From Enterobacteria phage HK225, in the sequence record NC_019717.1: a stretch of DNA of 45,366 bases; one strand, given 5' to 3'. Positions 5,563 to 22,088 of the stretch are shown here, one piece after another. The notes below the pieces were generated by a model. It did not search any database and was not told where the DNA came from. It saw only the letters and a list, made by a program, of their open reading frames with translations. A program made the position numbers and the translations under genes. Positions within the stretch are counted from its first letter, which is position 1. Each line of letters begins with the position of its first letter.

Positions 5563-5571
5563 GAGGCTATC

Positions 5572-5904
5572 ATGGAAATTACTGAAGTTTTCACACATAA
5601 CCAGCCGCTCGGTAACAGCGACCCGGCGCACACTGCGTATGGTCTTGGCGAACTGACAGCTTCCACTCCAGCCATGACGCCGCTCATGCTGGATGCCACT
5701 TCTGGCAAGCTGGCCGTCTGGGATGGTGCTCATGCTGGCGCGGCAATGGGCATCCTGGCTGTAACCGCAGACCAGAACAGCGCGGAACTGGCATTTTACA
5801 AATCTGGCTCTTTCCGTATTGAAGATGTCCTCTGGCCATCTGCCGTCACCGACGACAACATTAAACGTAACGCGTTCGCCGGTACTGCAATCAGCATCGT
5901 TTAA
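5572..5904 (+). CDS. D: head decoration protein (lambda gpD-like)
   Basis: 110-aa ORF, same length as lambda D; motifs [12 protein letters not shown] and FAGTAISIV; good SD. Confidence 0.9.
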
Positions 5905-5935
5905 TCCGCATTTCTACAACCATCATCATTCATAA

Positions 5936-5958
5936 AAGCCGCCTGCGCGGCTTTTTTT
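5936..5958 (+). terminator. intrinsic terminator-like hairpin between D and E
   Basis: GCCGC-ctgc-GCGGC stem followed by a run of seven T. Confidence 0.5.
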
Positions 5959-5971
5959 ACGGGAAATATCT

Positions 5972-6997
5972 ATGTCCGTTTACACCACTGCCCAGCTGCT
6001 GGCGGTCAATGAGAAGAAATTCAAATTCGATCCGCTTTTCCTGCGTATCTTTTTCCGCGAAACCTATCCCTTCAGTACAGAGAAGGTTTACCTGTCGCAA
6101 ATTCCTGGCCTGGTCAATATGGCGCTTTACGTCTCGCCGATTGTCTCCGGCAAAGTGATCCGCTCCCGTGGCGGCAGCACGTCTGAATTCACGCCGGGTT
6201 ATGTGAAGCCGAAACACGAAGTTAACCCACTGATGACTCTCCGCCGCCTGCCGGATGAGGATCCGCAGAATCTCGCTGACCCGGTCTATCGCCGTCGCCG
6301 CATCATCCTTCAGAACATGAAGGATGAAGAGCTGGCGATTGCTCAGGTCGAAGAGAAACAGGCTGTTTCGGCGGTGCTCAGCGGTAAATACACCATGACC
6401 GGGGAAGCGTTCGAGCCTGTTGAAGTCGATATGGGTCGCAGCGCTGGTAACAACATTGTCCAGGCAGGTGCGGCTGCATGGTCAACCCGCGACAAAGAAA
6501 CGTATGACCCGACCGATGACATTGAAGCGTACGCGCTTAATGCCAGCGGTGTGATCAACATCATTGTGTTCGATCCGAAGGGCTGGGCGCTGTTCCGTTC
6601 CTTCAAGTCTGTTGAGAAGAAACTGGACACCCGTCGGGGTTCTAACTCAGAGCTGGAAACTGCCGTGAAAGACCTGGGTATGGCTGTTTCATACAAGGGT
6701 ATGTATGGCGATGTGGCCATCGTGGTGTACTCCGGCCAGTACGTCGAAAATGATGTCAAAAAGAACTATCTGCCGGATCTGACGATGGTTCTGGGTAATA
6801 CACAGGCCCGTGGCCTCCGTACCTATGGCTGCATTCTTGATGCTGATGCCCAGCGCGAAGGTATCAATGCCTCGACACGCTACCCGAAAAACTGGGTGCA
6901 GTCGGGGGATCCGGCGCGCGAATTCACCATGATTCAGTCAGCTCCGCTGATGCTGCTGCCAGACCCTGACGCATTCGTCTCCGTCAAACTGGCATAA
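5972..6997 (+). CDS. E: major capsid protein (lambda gpE-like)
   Basis: 341-aa ORF, same length as lambda E; N-terminus MSVYTTAQLLAVNEKKFKFDPLFLRIFF recalled as lambda E. Confidence 0.95.
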   Translation: MSVYTTAQLLAVNEKKFKFDPLFLRIFFRETYPFSTEKVYLSQIPGLVNMALYVSPIVSGKVIRSRGGSTSEFTPGYVKPKHEVNPLMTLRRLPDEDPQNLADPVYRRRRIILQNMKDEELAIAQVEEKQAVSAVLSGKYTMTGEAFEPVEVDMGRSAGNNIVQAGAAAWSTRDKETYDPTDDIEAYALNASGVINIIVFDPKGWALFRSFKSVEKKLDTRRGSNSELETAVKDLGMAVSYKGMYGDVAIVVYSGQYVENDVKKNYLPDLTMVLGNTQARGLRTYGCILDADAQREGINASTRYPKNWVQSGDPAREFTMIQSAPLMLLPDPDAFVSVKLA

Positions 6998-7007
6998 CTT
7001 CCCCCAG

Positions 7008-7025
7008 TGGCCCTGTCGGGCCACC
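7008..7025 (+). terminator. hairpin downstream of the capsid gene (possible partial terminator or RNA stabiliser)
   Basis: perfect inverted repeat GTGGCCC-tgtc-GGGCCAC followed by CTTTCT. Confidence 0.35.
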
Positions 7026-7042
7026 TTTCTGGAGTATTTCCC

Positions 7043-7459
7043 ATGACAGAAAAAGAAAAGCTGGTCGCCCGCCTGAATGAACTTGGGACCCAGCTTAACC
7101 GCGAGGTCAGTTCCAGCGGCACCATTCAGGAACTAACGATGCGTATTGCTGAGCTTGAAGAGGAGCTGGATGGAGACGCCATCTCGGTTGACGGTAAAAA
7201 CGGCGTGCAGAATGCTTCCGACAGCACCGACAGCACCGACAGCACCGACAGCAATGTTGCTAACGTGGCAAAAGTAAAAACGGAATCGGCCACAACGGGT
7301 GACCTGGTATCAGTAGAAACGCTGGCCACCCTGCATATTGACGCTCTGCATGCCACGCGTAACGAACCGGTATCCATCGTAGAGCCTGGTGTGATTATCC
7401 GCGTATCTGAACAGGATGCCGACGACTTGATCGCAAAGGGGCTGGCTTTCGAAGTCTGA
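7043..7459 (+). CDS. FI: DNA packaging protein FI
   Basis: ORF track gives 7007 (alternative start); ATG at 7043 has GGAG 9 nt upstream and gives 138 aa; LNELGTQLNREV and HIDALHATRNEPV resemble lambda FI; contains a (DST)n tandem repeat. Confidence 0.8.
   Translation: MTEKEKLVARLNELGTQLNREVSSSGTIQELTMRIAELEEELDGDAISVDGKNGVQNASDSTDSTDSTDSNVANVAKVKTESATTGDLVSVETLATLHIDALHATRNEPVSIVEPGVIIRVSEQDADDLIAKGLAFEV
7219..7253 (+). repeat. 9-bp tandem repeat CGACAGCAC x ~3.9 inside FI, encoding (DST)n
   Basis: direct reading: ccgacagcaccgacagcaccgacagcaccgacagc. Confidence 0.9.
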
Positions 7460-7469
7460 AGGGGGCCAC

Positions 7470-7823
7470 ATGGCTGATTTCGATAATCTCTTTGACGAGG
7501 CCATGTCGCGAGCTGATAGAGCTATCCGTGGTGTGATGGGCACAGAGGCAAAGGTGATGTCAGGCGCTTTGTCAGGTGCCACCCTGGTCGGTGTATTCGA
7601 TGATCCAGAAAATATCGGATATGCCGGTGCCGGGATTCGTGTTGAAGGAACCAGCCCGACCCTGTTTGTGGAAACCGCCACTGTCAGGCAGCTGCAGCGT
7701 ATGGACACGCTGACGATTAACGGTCGGCAATTCTGGGTTGATCGTGTTGGTCCTGATGATTGTGGATCATGTCACATCTGGCTGGGTAACGGCTCTCCGC
7801 CTGCTGCTGCGCGCCGCCGTTAA
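7470..7823 (+). CDS. FII: head-tail joining protein FII
   Basis: 117-aa ORF, same length as lambda FII; MADFDNLFDEAM N-terminus. Confidence 0.85.
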   Translation: MADFDNLFDEAMSRADRAIRGVMGTEAKVMSGALSGATLVGVFDDPENIGYAGAGIRVEGTSPTLFVETATVRQLQRMDTLTINGRQFWVDRVGPDDCGSCHIWLGNGSPPAAARRR

Positions 7824-7832
7824 GGAGCGCTT

Positions 7833-8387
7833 ATGTCAATAAAAGGCCTTGAACAGGCGATAGAAAACCTTAACAGCATCAGCAAAACGGCTGTCCCGCG
7901 TGCGTCGGCGCAGGCTGTTAACCGCGTGGCAAACCGGGCCGTCAGTCGCAGCGTGGCGGTCGTATCAAAAGATACGCGCGTACCGAGAAAACTGGTAAAG
8001 CAACGCGCCAGGGTGAAGCGTGCGACGGTCAATAAACCTCGTGCGCTTATCCGTGTAAACCGGGGCAATTTACCGGCCATTAAACTCGGTACCGCAAGCG
8101 TGCGACTTTCCCGCAGAAAACGGGACAAGAAAGGGGCCAACAGCGTTCTGCGTATAGGACCGTTCCGTTTTCCGGGCGGTTTTATCCAGCAACTTAAAAA
8201 TGGCCGCTGGCATGTCATGAGGCGTACGTCAAAACCTCGTTACCCCATTGAAGTGGTCAGCATCCCGCTGGCAGCTCCATTAACTACGGCGTTTAAAGAA
8301 GAACTGCCAAAGCTCATGGAGTCAGATATGCCCAAAGAACTCCGGGCATCCCTTACCAACCAACTCAGGTTAATTCTGACACGATGA
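7833..8387 (+). CDS. Z: tail completion protein Z
   Basis: 184-aa ORF; MSIKGLEQAIENL and FIQQLKNGRWHVM match lambda gpZ by recollection. Confidence 0.85.
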   Translation: MSIKGLEQAIENLNSISKTAVPRASAQAVNRVANRAVSRSVAVVSKDTRVPRKLVKQRARVKRATVNKPRALIRVNRGNLPAIKLGTASVRLSRRKRDKKGANSVLRIGPFRFPGGFIQQLKNGRWHVMRRTSKPRYPIEVVSIPLAAPLTTAFKEELPKLMESDMPKELRASLTNQLRLILTR

Positions 8388-8782
8388 AACACAGCGATAT
8401 TCGCAAGGTGATTATTGACGCGCTGGAGAGCGCGATTGGTACTGACGCCATTTATTTTGACGGCAGACCTGCAGTGCTTGAAGAGGGTGATTTTCCCGCT
8501 GTTGCCGTTTACCTGACCGATGCGGAATACACCGGGGAAGAACTGGACGCCGACACTTGGCAGGCCATTCTGCATATCGAAGTCTTTCTTGAGGCTCAGG
8601 TACCTGATTCTGAGCTGGATGACTGGATGGAGACGCGAGTGTATCCGGTTCTCGCAGAGGTTCCTGGGCTTGAATCCCTTATCACCACAATGATCCAGCA
8701 GGGCTATGACTACCAGCGCGATGATGATATGGCGCTGTGGAGTTCTGCCGACCTGAAATATTCCATTACTTACGACATGTGA
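8384..8782 (+). CDS. U: tail terminator protein U
   Basis: 132-aa ORF; [31 protein letters not shown] is near-identical to recalled lambda gpU. Confidence 0.9.
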
Positions 8783-8789
8783 GGACCCT

Positions 8790-9527
8790 ATGGCCACACC
8801 AAACCCGCTGGCGCCAACAAAAGGTGCCGGTACCACTCTCTGGGTTTACACCGGAAACGGTGACCCCTATGCCAATCCGCTTTCAGACGTTGACTGGTTG
8901 CGCCTCGCAAAGATTAAAGACCTGCAGCCCGGTGAACTGACGGCTGAATCTGAAGATGACACCTACATCGATGATGAGAATGCCGACTGGACATCAACGA
9001 TGCAGGGGCAGAAATCAGCCGGTGAAACCAACCTGACGCTCGCGTGGATGCCGGGAGATTCCGGACAGCAGGACCTAGTGAACTGGTTCGATGAGGGCAC
9101 CGTGAGGGGATATAAAATCAAATACCCAAATGGTGTTGTCGATGTGTTTAAGGGCTGGGTGAGCAGCCTCGGTAAAACCATAGCGTCCAAAGAGGTCATG
9201 ACCCGCACGGCCAAAATCACAAACAACGGCAAACCATCGCTGGCAGAGGACAGCGGTACCGCGCCGATTGCTGTCACGGGGATCAGTCTGGATAAATCCA
9301 CTGCAACTGTAGCGGTCGCAGCCACAACGCAACTGGTGGTTTCAGTCCTTCCGGCCAGTGCGTCAGATAAATCCTTCCGCGTAGCCAGCTCTGATCCTTC
9401 AAAAGCAACGGTCACTGTTAACGGCAATACCCTGACTGTCACCGGCGTGGCGGCGGGCACCGTCGAAATCATCGTTATGAGCAATGACGGTAACTTTGTG
9501 GCGATCTGCAAAGTCACTGTTTCCTGA
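8790..9527 (+). CDS. V: major tail tube protein V with C-terminal Ig-like domain
   Basis: 245-aa ORF (lambda V is 246 aa); C-terminal Big_2-like segment ([23 protein letters not shown]). Confidence 0.9.
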
Positions 9528-9565
9528 TAACCGGGGCGTGAGCCCCGTTCCGACCCGGAGTAAAT

Positions 9566-9988
9566 ATGTTTCTAAAAAGCGAACTGCTGGAAAGTAACGG
9601 CAGCAGCGTCACATTGTTCCAGCTTTCGGCGCTTCAGCGTATTGAATACCTCGAATACCTGAAGCAGCTGGAAGCAGTTGAAGCTGGCGATTTCCAGGCG
9701 GCCATCACCCTCACCGTAAAAAGTGGGGCGTTCCTCGTGGCGATGTCGCTCTGGCACGGCCACGAACTGAAAGGCTCCCAGGGAGAAAATGCGGCGGCGG
9801 AAGTGGCAAAGATTCAGGATGAGGTCATGCAGTCATGGCCGACCGAACTGGTTGCCGAAGCGGAATATAAGGTGAAGCTCCTGTCCGGGATGATTGCGCC
9901 GGTAACTGATGACCAGGCAGCGTCCGGCGAAGAAGGTAATGAACCCGCTGAACCCGTTACTGCGGAAAAGTCCTCGCCAGTGAGCTGA
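9566..9988 (+). CDS. G: tail assembly chaperone G
   Basis: 140-aa ORF, same length as lambda G; MFLKSELLESNG, GAFLVAMSLWH and C-terminal PAEPVTAEKSSPVS parallel lambda G. Confidence 0.85.
   Translation: MFLKSELLESNGSSVTLFQLSALQRIEYLEYLKQLEAVEAGDFQAAITLTVKSGAFLVAMSLWHGHELKGSQGENAAAEVAKIQDEVMQSWPTELVAEAEYKVKLLSGMIAPVTDDQAASGEEGNEPAEPVTAEKSSPVS
9964..9970 (+). other. candidate -1 programmed ribosomal frameshift site for G-T fusion (GGAAAAG)
   Basis: zero-frame codons G GAA AAG at the position of the lambda G GGA AAG slippery heptamer; the -1 frame is open from here into the T ORF. Confidence 0.55.
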
Positions 9989-10317
9989 ATTTTGCCATGA
10001 AACTGGCGCGTGAGTTCGGTCGCCCGGACTGGCGTGCCATGCTTGCTGGCATGTCCTCAACGGAGTATGGCGACTGGAAAATCTTCTATCAGGACAATTA
10101 CTTTCATGATGTGCAGCTGGACGCTCACTTCTCCGGCTTGCTCTACACCATCTCAACCCTGTTTTTTGCCGATCCGGAGTTAACCCCGGACAGTTTCAGC
10201 ATTCTTGCTACTGCACCGGAACCCATCGACATTGATGAACCGGATGACAATACGCTGATGGCGAAGGCTGCAGGTATTTCAGGAGGCGTGCGCTATGGCC
10301 CAGACGGCAGTCGGTGA
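9964..10317 (+). CDS. T: tail assembly chaperone T segment, expressed as G-T fusion by -1 frameshift
   Basis: ORF 9997..10317 is in the -1 frame relative to G and stays open upstream through the slippery site; conserved G/GT arrangement upstream of the tape measure. Confidence 0.7.
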   Translation, partial: GKVLASELNFAMKLAREFGRPDWRAMLAGMSSTEYGDWKIFYQDNYFHDVQLDAHFSGLLYTISTLFFADPELTPDSFSILATAPEPIDIDEPDDNTLMAKAAGISGGVRYGPDGSR

Positions 10318-12811
10318 TCTGGTCGTTAACCTTGACGTTAACTCGTCGAAATTCAGCGAGCAGCTTAACTACGTCAAAAAAGAATTAAAACAGACCGGCA
10401 ATGCGGCAAACGACGAAGCGTTACGTATCCAGCAGTCCTTCAGCCGACAGGAGAACGCCGCGCGTAAGGCCGGTATTTCAGTGGGTCAGTATAACGCCGC
10501 AATGCGTATGCTCCCGGCGCAGTTTACCGATGTGGCCACGCAGCTGGCAGGTGGGCAGAACCCCTGGCTGATTCTGCTTCAGCAGGGTGGTCAGGTTAAG
10601 GACTCCTTTGGCGGGATCATCCCGACATTCCGGGCGCTGATTGGGACGGTTTCCCCGTTGATGGTCGGCATTGGTGCATTGTCCGTTGCAACGGGCGCGT
10701 TGTTCTATGCCTGGTACCAGGGCTCTTCCACCCTGTCTGATTTCAACAAAACGCTGGTACTGTCGGGGAACACAGCCGGACTGACCGCTGACCGCATGCT
10801 GGCACTGGCGCGTAACGGACAGACAGCGGGGCTGACCTTCAACCAGACCAGTGAAGCGCTGACCGAACTTATCAACGCGGGTGTGCGTGCTGGCTCGCGC
10901 TTTGATGACATGAGCCAGGCGGTGGCGCGGTTTACCGATGCCTCCGGCGTGCCGGTGGAAAAGGTCGCAGCAGCCTATGGCAAGCTCGCAACTGACCCGA
11001 CATCGGGCCTGATCGCGATGGCCCAGCAGTTCCATAACGTTACTGCTGAACAGATTGCCCATGTGGCGCAGCTGCAGCGTGCCGGTGATGAGGTTGGCGC
11101 ACTGCAGGCGGCTAACGAGGCTGCTACAGCCGGATTCAACGATCAGACCAAAGCCATCCGCGACAATATGGGGACGATTGAATCTTCAGCGGACTCCCTG
11201 AGGCGCGCCTTCAAGTCGATGTGGGATGCAGCCCTCGATATTGGCCGACCTGACACCGCGCAGGAGATGGTGGCAAAAGCCGAAGCCGCGTTCAAAAAAG
11301 CCGATGAAATCTGGAACCTGCGTAAAGGTGACCGATATGTCAATGATGAGGCCCGCGCCCGATTCTGGAATGATCGCGAAACGGCCAGGCTGGCGCTGGA
11401 CATGGCTCAGCAGCAGGCGGGAATTGCCAGGGCGAATGAAGAGAATGCTTCGCGCGAAGCGGCTGCGGAATCGGATCGCCAGAAGTATGCTGCGCAGGCT
11501 CAGGCAAACTATGCCAAAACGCAGACGGCACTGGAGAAATACACGGCCAGGCAGAGCGAGCTCAACAAGGCGCTGAAAGAGGGGCGAATCCTCCAGGCTG
11601 ACTACAACATCAACCTGGCTGCCGCGAAAAAAGAGTACGAAGACACCCTTAAAAAGCCGAAGAAGACCCCGGCAATCAGAACCCCCGCAGGTGCCCGTGC
11701 AACCGATACGGCCAGCGCCCAGACGCTGGAGCTGCAGGCACAGTTGCGCACCCTGCAGGAGCATAAGGGGATAAATGACACCATCAGTCAGCAGCGTCAG
11801 GAGCTGTGGCGTCAACAGTCCCGGTTTACAGTTCTGGAAGAGGCCGCGAAGACCCGGACGCTTTCTGCTGAGGAAAAATCCCTGCTGGCCAGTAAAAGCG
11901 AGGTGCTTTCCCGTGCAGAGCTGAACGCGAAGCTTGGCGATCAGATAGTGGCGCAGGAGCGGCTTAACCGCCTGCAGGATACGTCCCAAAAATACGTCAC
12001 GCAGATCGGCGAGAAAACCAGGGCCCTGGCGGAAAGTGCTGGTATGAGCAGTCGTGCAGCACAACGCCGCAACGAGGAGGCCCAGCTTCTTCAGGGGTGG
12101 AAAAATGGTGGCGGTTCGGAGAACGACGCTGGTTATCAGAATGAGTTGCAGGCGCTGCAGGCGTATTACGCCGAGCAGGATAAGCTGCGGGACGACTGGC
12201 AATCCGGGGCCAAATCCGCATGGGCAGATTATGTTGATTCTGCTTCAGATGCTTATGGCCAGATGAAGTCGGCTGCTACCAGTACGTTTGATGGAATCGG
12301 GCAAAATATGGCTGACATGCTGACGCGCGGTAAGGCTGACTGGGCTGACTTCACCCGCTCCACGCTCTCCATGCTGACACAGATCCTGCTGAAACAGGCG
12401 ATGGTAGGCTTAGTGGATTCAGCATCAACCGCGCTGGGATTTGCAGGTGGCGGTTATACCGGTTCAGGCGGGAAATATGAGCCAGCAGGTGTCGTTCACC
12501 GTGGTGAGTTTGTTTTCACCAAAGAGGCTACCAGCCGGATCGGCGTCGGCAATCTTTACCGGATGATGAAAGGCTATGCAACGGGAGGGTATGTCGGGGG
12601 CGGTGGTACAGGCCCGGCTGCAGCACCTTTCGGTGTCAGTGTATATGCCCCGGTGACGGTCGAGAATGCTTCCGGTAACGCACAGCAGCAAAACGACGGA
12701 GACAGGCTGGGTAAGGCGTATCAGCAGGTGATTAACAAATCTGTCAACGAGGGTATCGCCAGGGCAATCCAGCCCGGTGGGCTTATCTGGAATGCGACCA
12801 ATCGCAGGTAA
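10295..12811 (+). CDS. H: tail tape measure protein (lambda gpH-like)
   Basis: 838-aa ORF after G/T; coiled-coil-rich with Gly-rich C-terminus (lambda H is 853 aa). Confidence 0.9.
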   Translation: MAQTAVGDLVVNLDVNSSKFSEQLNYVKKELKQTGNAANDEALRIQQSFSRQENAARKAGISVGQYNAAMRMLPAQFTDVATQLAGGQNPWLILLQQGGQVKDSFGGIIPTFRALIGTVSPLMVGIGALSVATGALFYAWYQGSSTLSDFNKTLVLSGNTAGLTADRMLALARNGQTAGLTFNQTSEALTELINAGVRAGSRFDDMSQAVARFTDASGVPVEKVAAAYGKLATDPTSGLIAMAQQFHNVTAEQIAHVAQLQRAGDEVGALQAANEAATAGFNDQTKAIRDNMGTIESSADSLRRAFKSMWDAALDIGRPDTAQEMVAKAEAAFKKADEIWNLRKGDRYVNDEARARFWNDRETARLALDMAQQQAGIARANEENASREAAAESDRQKYAAQAQANYAKTQTALEKYTARQSELNKALKEGRILQADYNINLAAAKKEYEDTLKKPKKTPAIRTPAGARATDTASAQTLELQAQLRTLQEHKGINDTISQQRQELWRQQSRFTVLEEAAKTRTLSAEEKSLLASKSEVLSRAELNAKLGDQIVAQERLNRLQDTSQKYVTQIGEKTRALAESAGMSSRAAQRRNEEAQLLQGWKNGGGSENDAGYQNELQALQAYYAEQDKLRDDWQSGAKSAWADYVDSASDAYGQMKSAATSTFDGIGQNMADMLTRGKADWADFTRSTLSMLTQILLKQAMVGLVDSASTALGFAGGGYTGSGGKYEPAGVVHRGEFVFTKEATSRIGVGNLYRMMKGYATGGYVGGGGTGPAAAPFGVSVYAPVTVENASGNAQQQNDGDRLGKAYQQVINKSVNEGIARAIQPGGLIWNATNRR

Positions 12812-12816
12812 CAGTT

Positions 12817-13164
12817 ATGACGATAGAAACATTCCCCTGGGGCATTAAGGTTTCCAGCCAGCCCACCGAGGGAAGCAAAGACACAGTCAGGAAGGTCCAG
12901 TTCGGCGACGGGTACGCACAGGTGAGCGGCTCCGGCCTGAATGATGAGATTCGCACCTATGAATATTCTTTTTCAGGGGATCCAACTACAGCGAATGAAA
13001 TTCACGCTTTCCTTCGGCGGCATAAAGTGAAGTCGTTTATTTTCACTCCGCCTTTCGGCGATACCGCGCTGTGGCGTGTCGAGGCTGACACGCTCAAAAA
13101 GGTGGTTAAAAACGTAAAAGTGATAACCGTAACCGCAACGTTTGAACAGGCATTTGCACCATGA
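12817..13164 (+). CDS. M: minor tail protein M
   Basis: 115-aa ORF directly after the tape measure; lambda gpM-like. Confidence 0.85.
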   Translation: MTIETFPWGIKVSSQPTEGSKDTVRKVQFGDGYAQVSGSGLNDEIRTYEYSFSGDPTTANEIHAFLRRHKVKSFIFTPPFGDTALWRVEADTLKKVVKNVKVITVTATFEQAFAP

Positions 13165-13916
13165 GTCTTAATGCTGATTATCAAGAACTCGAGCCGGGCA
13201 ATGAAGTCCGGCTTTTTTCTGTCGATGGCACAGCGTTCGGTATGTCAGATGTACTCCGCTTCCACGCACACAATATCGCACACACCCCGGAAGAGATTGA
13301 GGCTGCAGGTGGGGATGAGAATAAACTTCCGGCGAAGTCCATCTGGTGGCAGGGGGAGGAGTATAAAGCTTGGCCGTGTCAGGTTGAGGGTATTGAAGCG
13401 ACCACGGACGGTACCAGCCCACAGCCAAAACTGAGAGTGGCGAACCTGGACAGTTCGATCTCAGCGCTCTGTCTGGCGTATGACGATCTGCTGCAGGCGA
13501 AAGTGAGTATCCACGACACGCTGGCACAGTATCTGGACGCCAGAAATTTTCCGCAGGGCAATCCCACTGCAGACCCGTCACAGGAAAAGCTGAAGGTCTT
13601 TTATATCGATGCCAGAAGCACCGAGACGGATGAAGTTGTCGAATTTACGCTTTCCAGTCCGATGGATTTACAGGGCCAGATGATACCCACGCGGCAGCTG
13701 CATTCGTTATGCAGCTGGTGCATCCGGAACAAGTACCGGACCGGCGACGGCTGCGACTATGCCGGAACGCGCTATTTCGACAAAAACAATAATCCGGTTG
13801 ACGATCCCTCGCTGGATGTCTGCAACGGCACGCTGACGGCCTGCAAGCTCCGGCACGGAGACAGCAACGAGCTGCCGTTCGGTGGTTTCCCCGGTACATC
13901 TCTTATCAGGAGTTGA
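13161..13916 (+). CDS. L: minor tail protein L (C-terminal Cys cluster)
   Basis: 251-aa ORF; C-terminal cysteines (CSWC, GCDYAG, CNGTLTAC) as in the lambda gpL Fe-S domain. Confidence 0.85.
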   Translation: MSLNADYQELEPGNEVRLFSVDGTAFGMSDVLRFHAHNIAHTPEEIEAAGGDENKLPAKSIWWQGEEYKAWPCQVEGIEATTDGTSPQPKLRVANLDSSISALCLAYDDLLQAKVSIHDTLAQYLDARNFPQGNPTADPSQEKLKVFYIDARSTETDEVVEFTLSSPMDLQGQMIPTRQLHSLCSWCIRNKYRTGDGCDYAGTRYFDKNNNPVDDPSLDVCNGTLTACKLRHGDSNELPFGGFPGTSLIRS

Positions 13917-13917
13917 T

Positions 13918-14649
13918 ATGCGCCAGAAAACCATTGATGCCATCATGGCACACGCTGCAGCGGAATATCCGCGCGAGTGCTGCGGCGTGGTGGCACAGAA
14001 AAGCCGGGTTGAGCGCTATTTTCCCTGTCGTAATCTCGCAGCAGAGCCGACTGAACATTTTCACCTGTCCCCCGAAGATTACGCAGCGGCAGAAGACTGG
14101 GGGACCGTGGTGGCCATTGTTCACAGCCATCCTGATGCGACGACGCAGGCCAGCGAGCTGGATAAGGCACAGTGTGATGCAACGCTGCTGCCCTGGCATA
14201 TTGTGAGCTGGCCAGAGGGGGATTTACGTACCATTCAGCCACGCGGGGAGCTGCCATTGCTGGAGCGTCCGTTCGTGCTTGGCCACTTCGATTGCTGGGG
14301 TCTGGTAATGAGCTATTTCCGGCAGACCCACGGTATCGAGCTCCACGATTACCGGGTGGATTATCCCTGGTGGGAAAACGACTACCCGGACAATTTCTAT
14401 CAGGAGTGCTGGTACGAGTGCGGATTCAGGGAGTTTGATGGCCCGCCTCAGGAAGGGGACCTCGTCATCATGCAGGTGCAGGCCGATAAGTGGAATCATG
14501 CCGGGATTTTACTGGAGGGTAACATGCTGCTGCACCATCTTTACGGGCATCTGAGTCAGCGTGTTCCTTATGGAGGATACTGGCAGGAGCGCACGATGAA
14601 AATCGTTCGTTATAAAGATGTAATGGCAGGTGAAACATGCAGGAAGTAA
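13918..14649 (+). CDS. K: tail assembly protein K (JAMM/MPN plus NlpC/P60-like)
   Basis: ORF track gives a GTG at 13882; ATG at 13918 follows AGGAG and the L stop; MRQKTIDAIMAHAAAEYPRECCGVVA matches lambda K; HSHP JAMM motif. Confidence 0.85.
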   Translation: MRQKTIDAIMAHAAAEYPRECCGVVAQKSRVERYFPCRNLAAEPTEHFHLSPEDYAAAEDWGTVVAIVHSHPDATTQASELDKAQCDATLLPWHIVSWPEGDLRTIQPRGELPLLERPFVLGHFDCWGLVMSYFRQTHGIELHDYRVDYPWWENDYPDNFYQECWYECGFREFDGPPQEGDLVIMQVQADKWNHAGILLEGNMLLHHLYGHLSQRVPYGGYWQERTMKIVRYKDVMAGETCRK

Positions 14650-15224
14650 TGACCCGGATTGAGCTTGGCGGCGTGCTCGGGAAAACATTCGGTAAAATTC
14701 ACCACCGCCTGATTTCCCGTGTAAGCGAGGCGGGAGTGGCGCTCGCAAAGACTATTCCGGGCTTTGAGCAGTTTATGATTTCCAGCCAGCGCCGTGGGCT
14801 CACATACTCCGTATTTAAGGGTAAAAAAAACATCGGTGTGGATGACCTCGGTTTCCCGGTTACCGGCGATGTTATCCGCATTGTCCCGGTAATCATCGGG
14901 AGTAAAAAAGCCGGTTTGATTCAAACTATCCTGGGCGCAGTATTAGTGATTGCATCGATCTGGATGCCAGGTCTGAGTATAGCTGCCAGCAATATGATGT
15001 TTGCTGCTGGTGCGTCCATAACGCTGGGGGGGGTAGTTCAGATGATATCCCCTCAGGCTACAGGGCTGGCCAGCAAACAGAGCTCAGATAACCGCGCCTC
15101 ATACGCGTTCGGCGGAGTCACAAACACCGCAGCGCAGGGCTATCCGGTACCGCTTCTTTATGGTCGCCGACGCATAGGCGGCGCAATTATTTCAGCCGGG
15201 ATTTACGTTGGGGATCAACAATGA
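14637..15224 (+). CDS. I: tail assembly protein I
   Basis: 195-aa ORF overlapping the K end; hydrophobic central segment and GYPVPLLYGRRRIGG motif as in lambda gpI. Confidence 0.8.
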   Translation: MQEVMTRIELGGVLGKTFGKIHHRLISRVSEAGVALAKTIPGFEQFMISSQRRGLTYSVFKGKKNIGVDDLGFPVTGDVIRIVPVIIGSKKAGLIQTILGAVLVIASIWMPGLSIAASNMMFAAGASITLGGVVQMISPQATGLASKQSSDNRASYAFGGVTNTAAQGYPVPLLYGRRRIGGAIISAGIYVGDQQ

Positions 15225-15487
15225 AGAAATACTTAAGATTGACCATTTCAGGCCTGCATCGCGTTGATGACGGAATCCTGATCGGCGGAAATGCGACAGT
15301 AATAGTAAACCGTGGCGGAGAGGTTATTTGTCGCGAGAAGTTTTCTGGCAAAGTTTCTGATAAATATTCAAAGCTATATGAAGTTGAAGACACCGGTATT
15401 CCAGTATCAGTAACGTCTTCCAGTGATTGTCAGTTTTTCAAGGCAGAAGCTGATTTTGTAAACCCATTTAGCGAAACAAATATCTGA
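15221..15487 (+). CDS. hypothetical protein (moron between I and J)
   Basis: 88-aa ORF, ATG overlaps the I stop (ATGA); visibly AT-richer than neighbours; followed by a strong terminator; no lambda counterpart. Confidence 0.5.
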   Translation: MKKYLRLTISGLHRVDDGILIGGNATVIVNRGGEVICREKFSGKVSDKYSKLYEVEDTGIPVSVTSSSDCQFFKAEADFVNPFSETNI

Positions 15488-15506
15488 TTAATTTTCTCTT
15501 GCAATA

Positions 15507-15530
15507 AGCCACCTCAGGGTGGCTTTTTTT
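15507..15530 (+). terminator. intrinsic terminator after the I-J moron
   Basis: GCCACC-tcag-GGTGGC stem followed by TTTTTTT, preceded by AATAA. Confidence 0.7.
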
Positions 15531-15541
15531 ATGGGCGCAAT

Positions 15542-18500
15542 ATGGCTATATCTACTCCGATTAGAGGCCGCAAGGGCGGCAGCTCAAGTTCCCGCACCCC
15601 GACTGAACAACCAGACGATCTCCAGTCCGTAGCGAAGGCCAAAATTCTTGTTGCGCTGGGAGAGGGGGAATTTGCAGGACAGTTGACGGCGAAGGATATC
15701 TATCTCGATGGAACTCCACTGGAGAATGCGGACGGATCGCAAAACTTCAGCGGCGTGGCGTGGGAATTTCGCCCAGGGACTCAGGCACAAAAATACATTC
15801 AGGGTATCCCCGGTACCGAAAATGAAATCAGCGTGGGCACCGAAGTGTCAAGCACCACCGGCTGGACACATACCTTTACCAACACGCAACTGTCAGCCGT
15901 TCGCCTGCGCCTCAAGTGGCCATCGCTTTTTAAACAGGAGGATGATGGCGATCTGGTTGGCTATTCAATTAACTACGCTATTGATCTGCAGACCGATGGC
16001 GGCACCTGGCAGACGGTACTTAATACCAGCGTAACCGGCAAGACAACTTCCGGCTACGAACGCAGCCATCGTATCGATTTACCACAGGCAGGCAGTACAT
16101 GGACGGTGCGCCTGCGTAAGCTCACGGCGGATGCCAACAGCGCGAAAATTGGCGACACGATGACGCTGCAGAGCTACACAGAGGTCATTGACGCCAAACT
16201 GCGTTATCCAAACACCGCGCTGTTGTACATCGAATTCGACTCAAGCCAGTTTAACGGCTCTATCCCGCAAATATCCTGCGAACCGCGAGGGCGTGTAATC
16301 CGCGTTCCGGATACGTATGACCCGGAGACCCGCACCTATAGCGGCACATGGACGGGGGCGTTTAAGTGGGCGTGGACGGATAATCCAGCCTGGATTTTTT
16401 ACGATCTGGTGGTGAGCGACCGCTTTGGGCTGGGCAATCGCCTGACGGCGGCCAATATTGATAAATGGACGCTTTACCAGGTCGCGCAATATTGCGATCA
16501 GCCGGTTCCTGATGGTAAAGGCGGTAGCGGCACTGAGCCTCGCTATACCTGCAACGTGTATGTGCAGGAGAGGAATGACGCCTATACCGTGTTACGAGAT
16601 TTTGCGGCGATATTCCGGGGCATGACTTACTGGGGTGGCGATCAAATCGTTGCGCTGGCGGATATGCCCCGCGATGTGGATTACAGCTACACGCGTGCAA
16701 ACGTGGTTAATGGGCGCTTTACCTATTCGGGCAGCACCACGAAAACCCGCTATACCACAGCACTGGTTTCCTGGTCCGATCCGGGTAATGCCTACGCGGA
16801 TGCGATGGAGCCTGTATTTGAGCAGGATCTCGTTGCTCGCTTTGGCACAAATCAGCTCGAAATGACAGCCATTGGTTGTACCAGACAGTCAGAAGCGAAC
16901 CGAAAGGGGCGCTGGGGTATTCTCACCAACAACAAGGATCGCGTTGTTTCGTTCGATGTCGGGCTGGACGGAAACATACCGCAGCCTGGCTATATCATCG
17001 CTGTGGCAGACGAGCTGCTTTCCGGAAAGGTGATGGGAGGGCGTATCAGCGCGGTTAATGGTCGCGTTATCACGCTTGATCGTGATTCCGCAGCCGTTGC
17101 CGGAAGCCGTCTTATGGTTAACCTGCCGTCTGGCGCATCGCAGAGCAGGACGATACAGAGCGTAAACGGTCGGGCTGTCACCGTGACCACGGCATACAGC
17201 GAAACACCGGCAGTCGAATCGGTATGGATTGTCGAATCCGACGAGCTTTATGCACAGCAATATCGTGTTATCAGCGTCGCTGATAATAACGACGGCACGT
17301 TTTCGATTACTGGTGCTTTTCACGATCCGGATAAGTATGCCCGTATCGATACCGGCGCCATCATCGACCAGCGGCCAATAAGTGTAATTCCGCCCGGTAA
17401 TCAGTCCCCGCCAGCCAACATCACGATCAGTTCGTTTTCGGTTGTTCAGCAGAATATCAGCGTCGAAACGATGCGCGTGAGCTGGGACCAGGCGCAGAAC
17501 GCTATCGCCTATGAGGGGCAGTGGCGCCGCAACGACGGAAACTGGGTGAACATGCCTCGCAGCTCCACCACGTCATTTGACGTCCCGGGGATTTATGCCG
17601 GGCGCTACCTGGTGCGCGTGCGCGCAATTAATGCCGCTGAAATTTCCTCAGGATGGGGATATTCAGAAGAGAAGACACTGACCGGCAAAGTAGGTAATCC
17701 GCCTAAGCCAGTAGGATTCACAGCCACGGGCATTAACTGGGGGATTCGTCTTAACTGGGGTTTCCCGGCAAACACCGGCGATACGCTAAAAACGGAAATT
17801 CAGTACACTGCCAACAGTGACTTTTCAGATCCACTCTTGCTCTCAGACGTGCCTTATCCATCTGCGGAATACACCCAGCTCGGCCTTAAAGCAGGGCAGG
17901 AATTCTGGTACCGCGCGCAGCTGGTCGACAGAACGGGTAACGAGTCCGGGTATACCGACTGGATCAGGGGGATGTCTAACGATAACGCCGATGATTATTT
18001 GGGCGATATCGCAGATGATTTCCTAACCTCTGCAGACGGAGAACGCCTGACTGGTGACATCGATACCAACATTGAGGGAATACTGCAGAACGCCCTGGCG
18101 AACCATGGAACTGTTGAGCACCAGTGGGCACAATACGGAGAAGTGCGTGCCGATATTCTGGTGGTTAAAACGACGATTGCTGAAGTTGATAATGCAATGG
18201 CCGAACTTTCGACGCAGGTGCAGGCGCAGATTGAGGATGTTACCGCTTCCCTGGAAGACAAGCTTACAGCTGTCGTAGATGCCTCCGGTGCTTCGGCAAT
18301 CCACACCCTCAAAACGGGCGTGAGAATAAACGGGGTGATTTATAACGCCGGGATGTCTATTGCAGTGCTTGCAGAGGCAGGGAAGCCGGTAGTCACGCGG
18401 GTTGGTTTCAACGCTAACCAGTTCGTGCTGATGAGCGGCAGTGGTGATACCCAGTATTCGCCGTTCGCGGTGGTAAACGGTCAGGTGTTTATCAGCTCAG

Positions 18501-18730
18501 CGTTTATTCAGGATGGCACGATCACCAATACCAAAATCGGTAACTTTATCCAGTCGAACAATTATGTTGCCGGCTCTGTTGGCTGGAAACTGGATAAGTC
18601 CGGGACGTTTGAGAACTACGGTTCGACAGCTGGGGAGGGAGCCATGAAGCAGACCAACCAGACAATCAGCGTCAAGGATGGCAACAACGTTCTGAGAGTG
18701 CAGGTTGGCCGATTAACGGGGGTGTTCTGA
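15542..18730 (+). CDS. J: central tail fibre / host specificity protein J
   Basis: 1062-aa ORF after I; lambda gpJ-like size (1132 aa) and position. Confidence 0.9.
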   Translation: MAISTPIRGRKGGSSSSRTPTEQPDDLQSVAKAKILVALGEGEFAGQLTAKDIYLDGTPLENADGSQNFSGVAWEFRPGTQAQKYIQGIPGTENEISVGTEVSSTTGWTHTFTNTQLSAVRLRLKWPSLFKQEDDGDLVGYSINYAIDLQTDGGTWQTVLNTSVTGKTTSGYERSHRIDLPQAGSTWTVRLRKLTADANSAKIGDTMTLQSYTEVIDAKLRYPNTALLYIEFDSSQFNGSIPQISCEPRGRVIRVPDTYDPETRTYSGTWTGAFKWAWTDNPAWIFYDLVVSDRFGLGNRLTAANIDKWTLYQVAQYCDQPVPDGKGGSGTEPRYTCNVYVQERNDAYTVLRDFAAIFRGMTYWGGDQIVALADMPRDVDYSYTRANVVNGRFTYSGSTTKTRYTTALVSWSDPGNAYADAMEPVFEQDLVARFGTNQLEMTAIGCTRQSEANRKGRWGILTNNKDRVVSFDVGLDGNIPQPGYIIAVADELLSGKVMGGRISAVNGRVITLDRDSAAVAGSRLMVNLPSGASQSRTIQSVNGRAVTVTTAYSETPAVESVWIVESDELYAQQYRVISVADNNDGTFSITGAFHDPDKYARIDTGAIIDQRPISVIPPGNQSPPANITISSFSVVQQNISVETMRVSWDQAQNAIAYEGQWRRNDGNWVNMPRSSTTSFDVPGIYAGRYLVRVRAINAAEISSGWGYSEEKTLTGKVGNPPKPVGFTATGINWGIRLNWGFPANTGDTLKTEIQYTANSDFSDPLLLSDVPYPSAEYTQLGLKAGQEFWYRAQLVDRTGNESGYTDWIRGMSNDNADDYLGDIADDFLTSADGERLTGDIDTNIEGILQNALANHGTVEHQWAQYGEVRADILVVKTTIAEVDNAMAELSTQVQAQIEDVTASLEDKLTAVVDASGASAIHTLKTGVRINGVIYNAGMSIAVLAEAGKPVVTRVGFNANQFVLMSGSGDTQYSPFAVVNGQVFISSAFIQDGTITNTKIGNFIQSNNYVAGSVGWKLDKSGTFENYGSTAGEGAMKQTNQTISVKDGNNVLRVQVGRLTGVF

Positions 18731-18731
18731 T

Positions 18732-19034
18732 ATGGCTTATGGAATACAGACCTGGGATGCTTCGGGAAACCCCAACAACTACGGAATCAAGCCCGTTTCC
18801 GTTGTTGGACGTATACAACTTGCCGCCGGACAAAACTCCGGCAGCTGGTCTTTCACTGTACCCTCAGGAATGAAGGTCGGTTTTGCGCTCTCACTTGATG
18901 AAGGAGGTAACAGCGTAGGGAGGAGCATTGTCGCGTCAGGGAACACAATAACCGTAACCGCAGCCTCTTCTGTGGGCCTGGGTAATTACCCGGCCTCTAA
19001 ATGTGAGGTGGTCGTTTTCATGGAGAAAGCATAA
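18732..19034 (+). CDS. hypothetical protein (tail-tip associated, coupled to J)
   Basis: 100-aa ORF starting 2 nt after the J stop; shares WDASG and SGSW motifs with the next ORF. Confidence 0.5.
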   Translation: MAYGIQTWDASGNPNNYGIKPVSVVGRIQLAAGQNSGSWSFTVPSGMKVGFALSLDEGGNSVGRSIVASGNTITVTAASSVGLGNYPASKCEVVVFMEKA

Positions 19035-19708
19035 TGGCCGAATTTGGCGCGATGATATTAATGGATAACGGGAATCCCTTTGTAACGCCACAATCAACGC
19101 CTTTCTGTCTTTACGGGAAGTATACCTTCAATTCATCCGCGAATGGCAGTTCTCAGCAGGTTGCTCAAAATATCGCTTTAAACGCTGATTACCCAGTGAT
19201 GGTTTTTATCAAAACCACCAATACAGCACAGCCCACTCCGGTTATGTCTTACAGGAACGGCGGTAATGTGTATGTTGTTGGTGTTAATCCCTACAACCAA
19301 AGTTTCACTTTAACGGCGTACGTTTTTGCCATATTCCCGCAGATATTACCGAAATGGGGTTTGGCAATATGGGATGCGAGCGGAAAGCTTGTGTTAACTA
19401 ATGAGTCCCGTGTGCTATCAGACCTGCAGACGGTTGGCACGCCTGGTGCAAACGGCGGGATAAATATTGACCAGACGCTGAGCGGGTCATGGGCCGTTGC
19501 ACCTGCTCAGTTGGGTCAGACCATCATTGTGAATAATTCAACCCAGCCTCCGACTATCTACACGATAAATGCTTATTCTTCATGCAGGTTTGACGGGGCC
19601 AATACGAGGATAAACGCAGGGGGGACCTCCACTGGGACAGGTTCACCTGTAGGGGGAACGAATACTGGCATTTCATTAACCGCCATAAATACAGCGGCCT
19701 ATGATTGA
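19034..19708 (+). CDS. hypothetical protein with two copies of the WDASG-type module
   Basis: 224-aa ORF, start overlaps the previous stop; Gly/Thr-rich C-terminus. Confidence 0.5.
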   Translation: MAEFGAMILMDNGNPFVTPQSTPFCLYGKYTFNSSANGSSQQVAQNIALNADYPVMVFIKTTNTAQPTPVMSYRNGGNVYVVGVNPYNQSFTLTAYVFAIFPQILPKWGLAIWDASGKLVLTNESRVLSDLQTVGTPGANGGINIDQTLSGSWAVAPAQLGQTIIVNNSTQPPTIYTINAYSSCRFDGANTRINAGGTSTGTGSPVGGTNTGISLTAINTAAYD

Positions 19709-19730
19709 TTGATCGTTTTTAGCGATCAAT
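19708..19730. promoter_or_regulatory. palindrome ATTGATCG-N7-CGATCAAT upstream of the lipoprotein gene
   Basis: perfect 8-bp inverted repeat in an AT-rich intergenic region. Confidence 0.3.
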
Positions 19731-19819
19731 AACATAATATTGATCTATCCAATCAATTATACCCACCAGAATTGTATTGGTATCGTCTAAGATACTGAAT
19801 TCCTCTGGATACTATCAAA

Positions 19820-20053
19820 ATGAGAAAACTGATTATCTGCATGGCAGGCGCTGTCATGCTTACAGGATGCGCTGGCGTAATTGAGAAACAGGAACCAGTT
19901 TGCAGCGGCACTGCAATCGTTGGCGGTCAGGAAACTACGGTTCAGATTTACGGTGTGCGTAAACAAAACAACCAGACGCAGTACCGGGCTGGATATCCTT
20001 TCAGCTGGCGCTGGGTAAGTGCGAATACATTTACCGAAACAACCTGCAAATAA
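19820..20053 (+). CDS. small lipoprotein, candidate Cor-like superinfection exclusion protein
   Basis: 77 aa; signal peptide with lipobox LTGC; own AT-rich upstream region and terminator; sits in the lom/cor slot between J and stf. Confidence 0.5.
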   Translation: MRKLIICMAGAVMLTGCAGVIEKQEPVCSGTAIVGGQETTVQIYGVRKQNNQTQYRAGYPFSWRWVSANTFTETTCK

Positions 20054-20074
20054 CCCACTACGCTTAAACATAAA

Positions 20075-20096
20075 CCTCGCTCCGGCGGGGTTTTTT
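20075..20096 (+). terminator. intrinsic terminator after the lipoprotein gene
   Basis: CCTCGC-tccg-GCGGGG stem followed by TTTTTT. Confidence 0.65.
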
Positions 20097-20116
20097 ATTG
20101 CCCGAAAGGAGCGCAT

Positions 20117-20977
20117 ATGTCTGCAGGAACTATCACCCTGACAAACGGGTCCGCTGTTGTTGGCGGTGCCGGAACCTCATTCGCAACCGAACTCGCCGGA
20201 GGTGATTTCATTGTTTCGACTGTGGGCGGTGTGCCCTACACGCTGCCGGTGAAAACGGTCGACAATAATACCCAGGTGACGCTGGTCAGCAACTTCACCG
20301 GGCCAACACAATCCGGCGCGGCCTGGTCAGCTGTGCCACGCGTGGCGCTGAACATGGTCACTGCCGCGCTGGTGGCGCAAAGTGCCGAAGCACTACGTGG
20401 TTTGAATTACGATAAACAGAACTGGCAGCAGGTTTACAGCGCCGCCGGAAACATCACAGTGAAGTTGCCAGACGGCACCACTTTCACCGGCCCATCATGG
20501 AAATATCTGTCTGACAATATGGCAACCAAGAGCGGTGGTGCAGTACCCGTTAACCAGGGAGGGACCGGGGCGACAACCGGAAACGCCGCGCTGTCCAATC
20601 TGGGTATCACCTATGTCAGGTCAGGAACAAACTACAGCGTGATAAAAATTGGCGATATTTATCAAATGGATTTCCTCATAGGTGGCGGCATCGCAATAGG
20701 GGCGTATAACCCTTCGGTAGTGGGAGGTATTGCGTATTACACGCACTACTATAAATTACCCCTGCCGATGGCATTACCAAACGGCGTTATAACTGCCATT
20801 GCGTCCATTTCGGGTGACAGATTTGGAAATCAATACCCCGGATACAATGCTGACGTTAAAGTATCCAGAGATAAAGATGATGGCAGTGGGCTATTAACAA
20901 CATATTTAACCGTCAGCGTTAAAACTCCTCAGACAGGCTGGACCCCTTATTTTCATATAAGAGTGGTGGGGTATTGA
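20117..20977 (+). CDS. stf: side tail fibre protein (short)
   Basis: 286-aa ORF, Gly/Thr-rich N-terminus MSAGTITLTNGSAVVGGAGTSF typical of enterobacterial tail fibres; immediately followed by a tail fibre assembly gene. Confidence 0.6.
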   Translation: MSAGTITLTNGSAVVGGAGTSFATELAGGDFIVSTVGGVPYTLPVKTVDNNTQVTLVSNFTGPTQSGAAWSAVPRVALNMVTAALVAQSAEALRGLNYDKQNWQQVYSAAGNITVKLPDGTTFTGPSWKYLSDNMATKSGGAVPVNQGGTGATTGNAALSNLGITYVRSGTNYSVIKIGDIYQMDFLIGGGIAIGAYNPSVVGGIAYYTHYYKLPLPMALPNGVITAIASISGDRFGNQYPGYNADVKVSRDKDDGSGLLTTYLTVSVKTPQTGWTPYFHIRVVGY

Positions 20978-20978
20978 T

Positions 20979-21392
20979 ATGAAATATTTTTACAGCATCA
21001 GCACGCAGGGATTTTACCTCGATAACGGTATGCTGGATGCGTATAAAGCGGCTGGCTCACTACCTGCGGACTTGCAAGAGATGAGCGAGGCTGACTATCT
21101 GGCGTTTTTTAATCCTCCCGATGGATTCGCGGGCATATTTGACGAGAAAGGACCGCGTATTGAACAACTGCCAGAACTGGACCCGCTGGCGATAGCAGAA
21201 AATCAACGGCGGCTGTTGCTGTCAGAAATCGCTCCGACTATTTCTGTATGGCAGACAAAAATCCTGGTGGGCATGAAACTGAGTGATTCAGAAACCGCAG
21301 CCCTGCATGCCTGGTTGAGTTACAGTGATGCGCTGAACGCGCTGGATATCACCGTGCCAGATATTCAGTGGCCTGAAAAACCCGCAGCGTGA
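20979..21392 (+). CDS. tfa: tail fibre assembly protein
   Basis: 137-aa ORF 1 nt after stf; MKYFYS...GFYLD N-terminus typical of Tfa chaperones. Confidence 0.7.
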   Translation: MKYFYSISTQGFYLDNGMLDAYKAAGSLPADLQEMSEADYLAFFNPPDGFAGIFDEKGPRIEQLPELDPLAIAENQRRLLLSEIAPTISVWQTKILVGMKLSDSETAALHAWLSYSDALNALDITVPDIQWPEKPAA

Positions 21393-21407
21393 TGTGATTT
21401 TCATTAA

Positions 21408-21433
21408 CCGGGCAGAAAAGGATGACTGCCCGG
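21408..21433. terminator. hairpin between convergent tfa and dinI (possible bidirectional terminator)
   Basis: CCGGGCAG-N10-CTGCCCGG inverted repeat. Confidence 0.35.
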
Positions 21434-21449
21434 TGATGTGAATATGTAA

Positions 21450-21689
21450 TTAATCAGCAACCAGCCACATGTCAGATTCTTCAAACATCTCTTCAAGCAT
21501 ACGATTAAGCCGTTCTTTCTCTGTTTTCGTGCAGTTGCTGTTTAGCGCGTTCGCCTGCATCGGCTTTACCTTCACTTCGGCACCAGGGAAAATCTGGTGC
21601 ACCCGCTTCGTCAGTTCGGCCAGAATGATCTCCCTGGCCCCTTCGAGCCCCTCAACATTTCGCTTGTCATAAACCAGTTCAACAAACAT
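21450..21689 (-). CDS. dinI: DinI-like SOS-induced protein
   Basis: ATG at 21689 is preceded by AAGAGGA; 79-aa product aligns with E. coli DinI (ELTKRVHQIFPG, EESDMWLVAD); the upstream part of the 208-aa track ORF is rejected. Confidence 0.75.
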   Translation of the reverse strand: MFVELVYDKRNVEGLEGAREIILAELTKRVHQIFPGAEVKVKPMQANALNSNCTKTEKERLNRMLEEMFEESDMWLVAD

Positions 21690-21745
21690 ACCGATCCTCT
21701 TATAAGTGAAAACTGCCTGTGCTTGATCTGTTTTCATAAAAATAC

Positions 21746-21765
21746 TACTGTATATACATACAGTC
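21746..21765. promoter_or_regulatory. LexA box (SOS operator)
   Basis: TACTGTATATACATACAGTC matches CTGT-N8-ACAG; lies between dinI (-) and the divergent ORF at 21789 (+). Confidence 0.8.
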
Positions 21766-21788
21766 AATGAGCGAGTGAGGGTGCATTT

Positions 21789-22088
21789 ATGCCTCGTCAA
21801 CCGGATATTCGTGCTGCTTTTATTGCGGCCATACAGCAAAACCCGAAGGGCTATCTCTGTCTGCATACAGACAAGTTCATCGCTGAACTGCAGGAGAGGA
21901 ACTGGCATTTCAGTCAGGCGGATGCAAATACATGGATCGAGCGATACCAGCCGGACTTCGCCGATAAGACGACAAACGAAAGCGAGAACCGGTACTGGAT
22001 CCTGCGTAACATGGGGAGGGTTCTGAGGAGTTATCTTGCGATGCGCTATAGGTTTGCCCCATCCCTCCCAAACCAACCTTTTTTATAA
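21789..22088 (+). CDS. hypothetical protein, divergent from dinI
   Basis: 99-aa ORF with GAGG-type SD; begins 24 nt after the LexA box. Confidence 0.45.
   Translation: MPRQPDIRAAFIAAIQQNPKGYLCLHTDKFIAELQERNWHFSQADANTWIERYQPDFADKTTNESENRYWILRNMGRVLRSYLAMRYRFAPSLPNQPFL

Follow-up and report, generated by a model that had tools for sequence, protein, structure and literature searches.

A foreign 88-aa reading frame between tail genes I and J of Enterobacteria phage HK225 and the putative terminator that follows it

Between the gpI and gpJ tail genes of Enterobacteria phage HK225 we found an 88-aa ORF (ORF88) of foreign composition. We consider it likely that ORF88 represents a cargo cassette made up of the ORF alone and placed at the gpI-gpJ junction, with a hairpin after it that was resident there, and that it is expressed late through coupling to gpI. 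The analysis was carried out on the window, which is the whole 45,366-nt stretch of record NC_019717.1; its layout is that of a complete-looking temperate lambdoid genome. Terminase is found at base 1, head and tail genes come next, and the other genes include Cor, an integrase, a CI-type repressor, the Q antiterminator, a holin and a lysozyme. Over 89% of bases 1-25000 the structural module is 95% identical to mEp237; its identity to N15 is about 90%. An earlier note on this DNA had described ORF88 as a moron with its own strong terminator, expressed independently, for example in the lysogen. The ORF and the hairpin were both located as it described them (Table 1): the ORF88 ATG (15221-15223) overlaps the TGA stop of gpI as ATGA, and a GCCACC-TCAG-GGTGGC hairpin with seven T precedes J.

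Table 1. Coordinates of features at the gpI-gpJ junction of HK225
Feature	Coordinates	Strand	Evidence or remarks
gpI tail assembly protein gene	14637..15224	+	phrog_32, E = 1.8e-72; stop TGA 15222-15224 overlaps ORF start
Shine-Dalgarno-like GGGGA, 6 nt before the ORF88 ATG, inside the last I codons	15210..15214	+	comparison with insert-free loci
Inserted accessory ORF, 88 aa (ORF88)	15221..15487	+	GC 0.404; dN/dS 0.19; pLDDT 88.8; phrog_2571
Spacer from ORF88 stop to hairpin, right edge of insert	15488..15505	+	alignment with insert-free relatives; same layout in 22 related loci
I-J hairpin AAGCCACC-TCAG-GGTGGCTT plus seven T, putative intrinsic terminator	15506..15530	+	dG -13.2 kcal/mol; conserved in relatives
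gpJ tail tip / host specificity gene	15542..18730	+	start region within conserved junction block

ORF88 is a real gene whose frame did not arise by chance, as indicated by its intact frames in relatives, its selection pattern, its AlphaFold2 model and its family match. The frame is unbroken in phage SaltyDalty (94% aa) and in a prophage locus of E. coli MS 115-1 (98% nt identity). It is also intact in 22 of 22 IMG/VR or GTDB loci, two of which have altered C-termini (90 and 95 codons). The median pairwise dN/dS given in Table 1 indicates purifying selection. The protein matches phrog_2571 over residues 1-88 with E = 7.5e-20, and AlphaFold2 modeled it as an eight-strand all-beta sandwich (pTM 0.76) in which residues 2-10 form a confident beta-strand. 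The 17 other structural genes have GC contents of 0.50-0.58 (around 0.54), all above that of ORF88, and GC3 is 0.36 in ORF88 compared with 0.52-0.64 in the same genes. Measured against all 267-nt windows of 1-19000, the GC z-score is -4.0, and ORF88 is the sole stretch in that region with GC of 0.43 or below. The composition of ORF88 is foreign, and its description as AT-richer than the tail genes was correct.

Two other coding possibilities were considered and rejected. An antisense frame (15187-15393, minus strand) is open for 56-98 codons in all relatives (L006-L027) and begins with ATG in some of them (MFVSLNGFTKS...). Since both its starts and its ends are variable, we take it for a probable shadow of the sense frame, the one under purifying selection, and not for a gene. 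For a gpI-ORF88 fusion by -1 frameshift, no slippery heptamer was found before the I stop, and a gpI-fused homolog was found in none of 90 family members. An Rfam search of 14000-17000 returned sub-threshold noise only (sroH at 18 bits, with a gathering score of 80).

ORF88 is absent from mEp237 (with its 95% identical module), N15, HK75 and lambda, which argues that it is not an integral tail-assembly gene. The comparison supports its reading as a dispensable insert outside the conserved M, L, K, I, J tail set, and the earlier note's view of the ORF as an insert agrees with this. Its distribution is patchy. Only one of 34 matching E. coli genomes carries it, a tblastn search of INPHARED phages gave SaltyDalty as the only match, and a scan of GTDB species representatives gave one locus only. 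ORF88 was found beside several different J N-terminal types, and its median dS is only 0.58, compared with 1.27 for the neighboring 87 I codons. The lower dS would fit spread of the ORF between I backgrounds via conserved flanks.

The core of the hairpin after ORF88 consists of GCCACC (15508-15513), the loop TCAG and GGTGGC (15518-15523). A-U pairs lengthen the stem to 15506-15525, the seven T lie at 15524-15530, and 11 nt separate the T-run from the J ATG (15542). With an 8-bp stem (six G-C-rich core pairs), a 4-nt loop and T7, the structure has the stem-loop and U-tract of an intrinsic terminator, and it is among the three best terminator-like sites in 8000-22000. The top-ranked site of that scan is a hairpin at 13191-13214, with 9 pairs followed by TTTTCT, within the gpL 5' coding region. 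Judged from its sequence and from the annotation of others, the I-J hairpin is a putative intrinsic terminator; the GenBank records of N15, HK75 and HK97 mark it as such (as rho-independent in N15).

The same hairpin, T-run and J start were found almost base for base in the junction alignment of insert-free mEp237, N15 and HK75, and the hairpin is also present in HK97 and HK022. N15 (gene 20/gene 21) and mEp237 have sequence homologous to that of HK225 at the I 3' end, in the hairpin and T-run and at the J start. Lambda, in its 60-nt I-J spacer, has an analogous hairpin AACCGCC-TGCG-GGCGGTT followed by TTGTCATTT (dG -12.3), located at lambda 15464-15495 (L153 165-196) with TTGTCATTTATGG after the stem. 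The remark that lambda has nothing here thus holds for the ORF and not for the hairpin. Since lambda's own spacer has one, a terminator-like hairpin before J appears to be general to lambda-type tail operons.

To survey junction contents, IMG/VR was searched for the exact 30-nt core GGGTGGCTTTTTTTATGGGCGCAATATGGC, which spans the hairpin 3' arm, the T-run and the J start, and at least 119 contigs were found. Junctions were classified by the distance from the I stop to the core in the 117 contigs with gpI located; only hairpins directly joined to the J start were counted, and a cargo lying past the hairpin would have escaped the survey. Among the matches listed, 71 loci have a distance of 23-30 nt and no insert, 14 have 292-293 nt and carry ORF88, and 32 have 481-1383 nt and carry at least six other cargoes. 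The latter, again among the matches listed, include a 238-aa protein with a signal peptide (797-798 nt, 12 loci), a 190-aa protein (664 nt, 9 loci), and a forward ORF of 70-105 aa starting MTLE together with a reverse ORF of 81-123 aa (several lengths from 609 to 1383 nt, 9 loci). The HK022 gp22/srb pair (481 nt) and a 210-aa reverse gene (854 nt) were found at one locus each. The I-J junction is polymorphic in the cargo that it carries, and in N15-, HK97- and HK022-like lambdoid phages it is known as a hot spot for morons. Another cargo of this junction (L044, L054, L056, L090 and others) encodes 99-105 aa with a coiled-coil-like N-terminus, is paired with a reverse 86-aa ORF, and contains 'AIQNALRPGG(A/C)(I/L)(H/Y)', which resembles a motif of the tape measure C-terminus. 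The 105-aa 'RPGG' cargo was considered as HK97 gp22-like and rejected; HK97 gp22 is a different protein.

Every cargo type among the IMG/VR matches listed ends just before the hairpin. Because the hairpin bounds every cargo type and is kept in insert-free relatives, it is a resident feature of the junction and not one brought by ORF88; on this point the earlier note, which gave the ORF its own terminator, is not supported. The conservation pattern could also be read to mean that the hairpin is mainly something other than a terminator: a recombination boundary, an mRNA 3'-end or stability element, or an element controlling J translation. The 30-nt core is exact in at least 119 contigs while the downstream J codons and the upstream I gene diverge; TTTTTTTATGGGCGCAATATGGC at the J start is invariant across several J N-terminal types. 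The cargo boundaries coincide with the hairpin, and the fold z-score of the hairpin in its 61-nt context is only -1.6. On the other side, the shape is that of a canonical intrinsic terminator (6-8 bp GC-rich stem, tetraloop, T7 and a favorable dG), and the same architecture is found in lambda at the same place with a different sequence. Furthermore, the stem is maintained while the loop is free to vary (at least 10 forms across the IMG/VR loci listed); 111 of the 119 contigs listed have GCCACC as the 5' arm, and the rare variants still pair via G-U. We regard a mainly non-terminator role as rather unlikely, although the terminator and junction-element roles are not mutually exclusive.

A terminator in the middle of the tail operon had been taken in the earlier note to imply dependence of J on Q antitermination. 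A Q antiterminator gene is indeed present at 42031-42846 (PF03589, E = 3e-47). With Q present, read-through of the mid-operon hairpin by Q-modified polymerase would be expected, as is the lambdoid arrangement, and equally so in relatives without the insert.

The insert is bounded on the left by the I stop codon, where insert-free phages have ...CAATAAATAAAAAC and insert-bearing ones ...CAATGAAAAAATAC. In N15 and mEp237 gene I ends in TAA, with no ATGA overlap. At the Shine-Dalgarno position the insert-bearing loci have GAGGAT or GGGGAT, whereas insert-free mEp237, N15 and HK75 have GAAGAC or GAAGAT; the insert-bearing version makes a better Shine-Dalgarno within the last I codons. Apart from this, the I 3' end has the sequence seen in the insert-free phages, and it is collinear with mEp237 and N15 right to the stop codon. 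The ATGA overlap, the Shine-Dalgarno-like sequence in the last I codons and the hairpin spacing were kept in 22 of 22 related loci. With this overlap and ribosome-binding sequence, and with neither a spacer nor a promoter-like site before the ATG, ORF88 is probably made late with its translation coupled to gpI.

The evidence on a promoter bears on the reading of ORF88 as a classical moron, that is, a gene with a promoter of its own that is read in the repressed prophage as far as the hairpin and is of benefit to the lysogen (superinfection exclusion or defence). The unchanged I 3' end indicates that no promoter was imported with ORF88, and the overlap of its ATG with the I stop leaves no room for one. 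No sigma-70-like site of at least 8/12 was found within 440 nt upstream of ORF88 in two scans, one of them laxer; the single 8/12 promoter-like match (14779) is what the background frequency would give. Inside I there may yet be a promoter that is weak, non-consensus or of a non-sigma-70 type. These observations speak against independent expression, for which the earlier note had suggested the lysogen.

HK97 gp15 is reportedly an inner-membrane superinfection-exclusion protein. Its gene is the founding example of a moron, foreign-composition extra DNA in a lambdoid tail operon like ORF88, and by the published definition it has its own promoter and terminator and is prophage-expressed (PMC3594210). 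In the Juhala/Hendrix sense, a moron is defined by a GC difference together with its own promoter and terminator (PMC3594210), and several features of ORF88 agree with this: it is extra DNA absent from close relatives, it is AT-rich with a foreign composition (the z-score given above), and a terminator-like hairpin follows it. Other cargoes of the same junction, HK97 gp22/gp23 and HK022 gp22/srb, are annotated in GenBank as 'moron product' or 'reverse moron product' (NC_002167, NC_002166). Like ORF88, they lie between gpI and the pre-gpJ hairpin, are bounded on the right by GCCACC-N4-GGTGGC and a T-run, and are absent from close relatives. Their proteins are unrelated to ORF88, however, and their inserts of 480-800 nt carry one gene on the reverse strand and begin 20-30 nt past the I stop, whereas ORF88 is a single forward ORF overlapping that stop. 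In contrast to HK97 gene 15, no promoter was detected for ORF88 by the sequence test applied, and its product is predicted to be soluble. The hairpin, being present in insert-free relatives and with every other cargo, was not brought in with the insert. PADLOC gave no match and, in contrast to HK225 Cor (19820-20053), the protein is without a signal peptide, a lipobox or transmembrane segments. Taken together, the classical moron reading is considered very improbable for ORF88.

The Cor-family ORF of HK225 encodes 77 aa, is lipoprotein-like (MRKLIICMAGAVMLTGCAG...) and matches phrog_1119 (superinfection exclusion) with E = 7e-37. A strong terminator-like hairpin (20072-20093) is found after it and two promoter-like sites are found upstream (19676-19738). 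This ORF would be the better candidate for a self-contained moron than the 88-aa I-J ORF. Two further ORFs lie directly 3' of J (18732-19708), with matches to phrog_557 'outer membrane protein' (100 aa) and phrog_425 'membrane associated protein' (224 aa). The GC content dips to about 0.43-0.44 around 19000-19350 in the ORFs after J.

The homology search on the 88-aa protein placed it in phrog_2571 (PHROGs v4), an uncharacterised family. Close homologs form 32 clusters at 75% identity or more, almost all from Enterobacter-group prophages and all named 'hypothetical'. An exhaustive profile search of 1.84 billion representatives gave 19 matches only and links ORF88 to the distant homologs P0035-P0047, which match the same phrog_2571 profile. 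A profile word search gave 90 family proteins, none of them named and none with Pfam domains. Nothing significant was found for ORF88 and its long relatives in Pfam, NCBIfam or PADLOC (Pertussis_S2S3, with E = 0.16, was the top Pfam match). The family profile matched no PDB sequence, and neither a viral scan with P0035 nor a Foldseek search of BFVD (at 1e-3 or better) gave a match. The phrog_2571 profile has 291 positions, compared with which ORF88 is the bare 88-aa domain; many members are extended by C-terminal peptides, and their genes are neighbors of terminase instead of being part of the tail module like ORF88.

Distant members (28-40% identity) lie in the stretch from the lysis cassette to terminase; this was observed for prophages of Salmonella, Citrobacter and Pantoea and for several IMG/VR contigs. 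In Salmonella the gene immediately preceding the homolog is Acb2/Tad1-like (PF24729), and glycosyltransferases follow. The Salmonella prophages (L154 3650-6860, L156) share a conserved string of an Acb2/Tad1-like protein, the 81-aa homolog, a 67-aa phrog_4280 protein, a 238-aa protein with a weak Pfam Phage_Tail_Tip match and a 485-aa glycosyltransferase, the whole string preceding HNH and terminase. L031 has a forward/reverse ORF pair (6749-7258) in its lysis-to-terminase region that by eye resembles HK97 gp22/gp23. Based on this pair, the I-J junction and the lysis-to-terminase region appear to share cargo.

This setting suggests that ORF88 could be a late counter-defence or host-takeover protein unrelated to the tail, for which the I-J junction is merely a permissive place in the late operon. 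The small size, solubility, patchy distribution and AT-richness of ORF88 would be in keeping with such a role, as would the accessory region in which the distant homologs lie and the Acb2/Tad1-like neighbor in Salmonella. The argument is one of guilt by association, however, and no match to known anti-defence proteins was found in Pfam, NCBIfam, PADLOC or the PDB. Late timing is also unusual for counter-defence proteins. We consider this role unlikely.

The C-terminal peptides of the long members point elsewhere. In many of them (P0040-P0047; L032 5001-5567) the beta-sandwich is joined to tape-measure-like and gpL-like peptides, which come in two circularly permuted orders. Residues 82-117 of P0042 show 35% identity to HK225 gpH (tape measure) 797-836 with a pairwise E = 4e-6, and P0045 88-104 matches HK225 gpL 228-244 with E = 6e-5; the HK225 segments compared are the gpH end (12676-12811) and the gpL end (13812-13916). 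The shared motifs are 'IR..L.PGGLLY.R', as at the tape measure C-terminus, and 'C.RF.D..LPFGGFP', as at the gpL C-terminus, both within the last 20-40 residues or so. In lambda tail-tip structures the extreme C-termini of the tape measure and gpL reportedly sit inside the tip. From these peptides and the gpI coupling, our leading guess is a role for ORF88 at the tail tip or together with it: the protein might be an accessory to the tip, decorate it, or engage its components. We hold this guess tentatively, and on balance doubt it. Structural matches are below significance (TM 0.46, with generic beta-sandwich matches close behind), and hhalign of the family against HK225 gpJ gave a probability of 0.2%. 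The 88-aa form is without the tape-measure-like and gpL-like peptides, close relatives assemble the same tail without ORF88, and the anti-defence neighbor in Salmonella points to counter-defence instead. A bolder version is that the beta-sandwich is the core module of an unrecognised late-operon cargo class (phrog_2571 and neighbors) that targets the inside of the siphophage tail tip. We regard it as a long shot. If it were true, such proteins could ride in the tip, to be ejected or to decorate it, or could poison the tail assembly of competitors, and gpI-coupled ORF88 would represent the minimal version, supplied right where the tip is assembled.

Whatever its function, the organization of the junction is best explained in our view by a cassette that would have arrived with neither promoter nor terminator. 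The conserved I 3' end and the invariant hairpin/J-start block probably serve as homologous flanks for cargo swapping. ORF88 is most likely transcribed with the late operon by Q-modified polymerase, and its translation is most likely coupled to that of gpI by way of the ATGA overlap and the ribosome-binding sequence in the last I codons. The hairpin would stop only unmodified transcription, or would trim the dosage of J, and the ORF88 product would not be needed for tail assembly.

ORF88 is one more cargo at a junction already flagged in the HK97, HK022 and N15 annotations, and as such the case is fairly ordinary. It would be wrong to assign a terminator found after an insert of this kind to the insert itself; here it is a fixed I-J feature, lambda included. 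The hairpin and the conserved I 3' end would frame a swap site with at least eight alternative contents. With no promoter detected and with probable coupling to a tail gene, ORF88 departs from the textbook moron layout. The tape-measure-like and gpL-like peptides in its relatives offer a concrete hypothesis on accessory proteins that may be directed to the tail tip.
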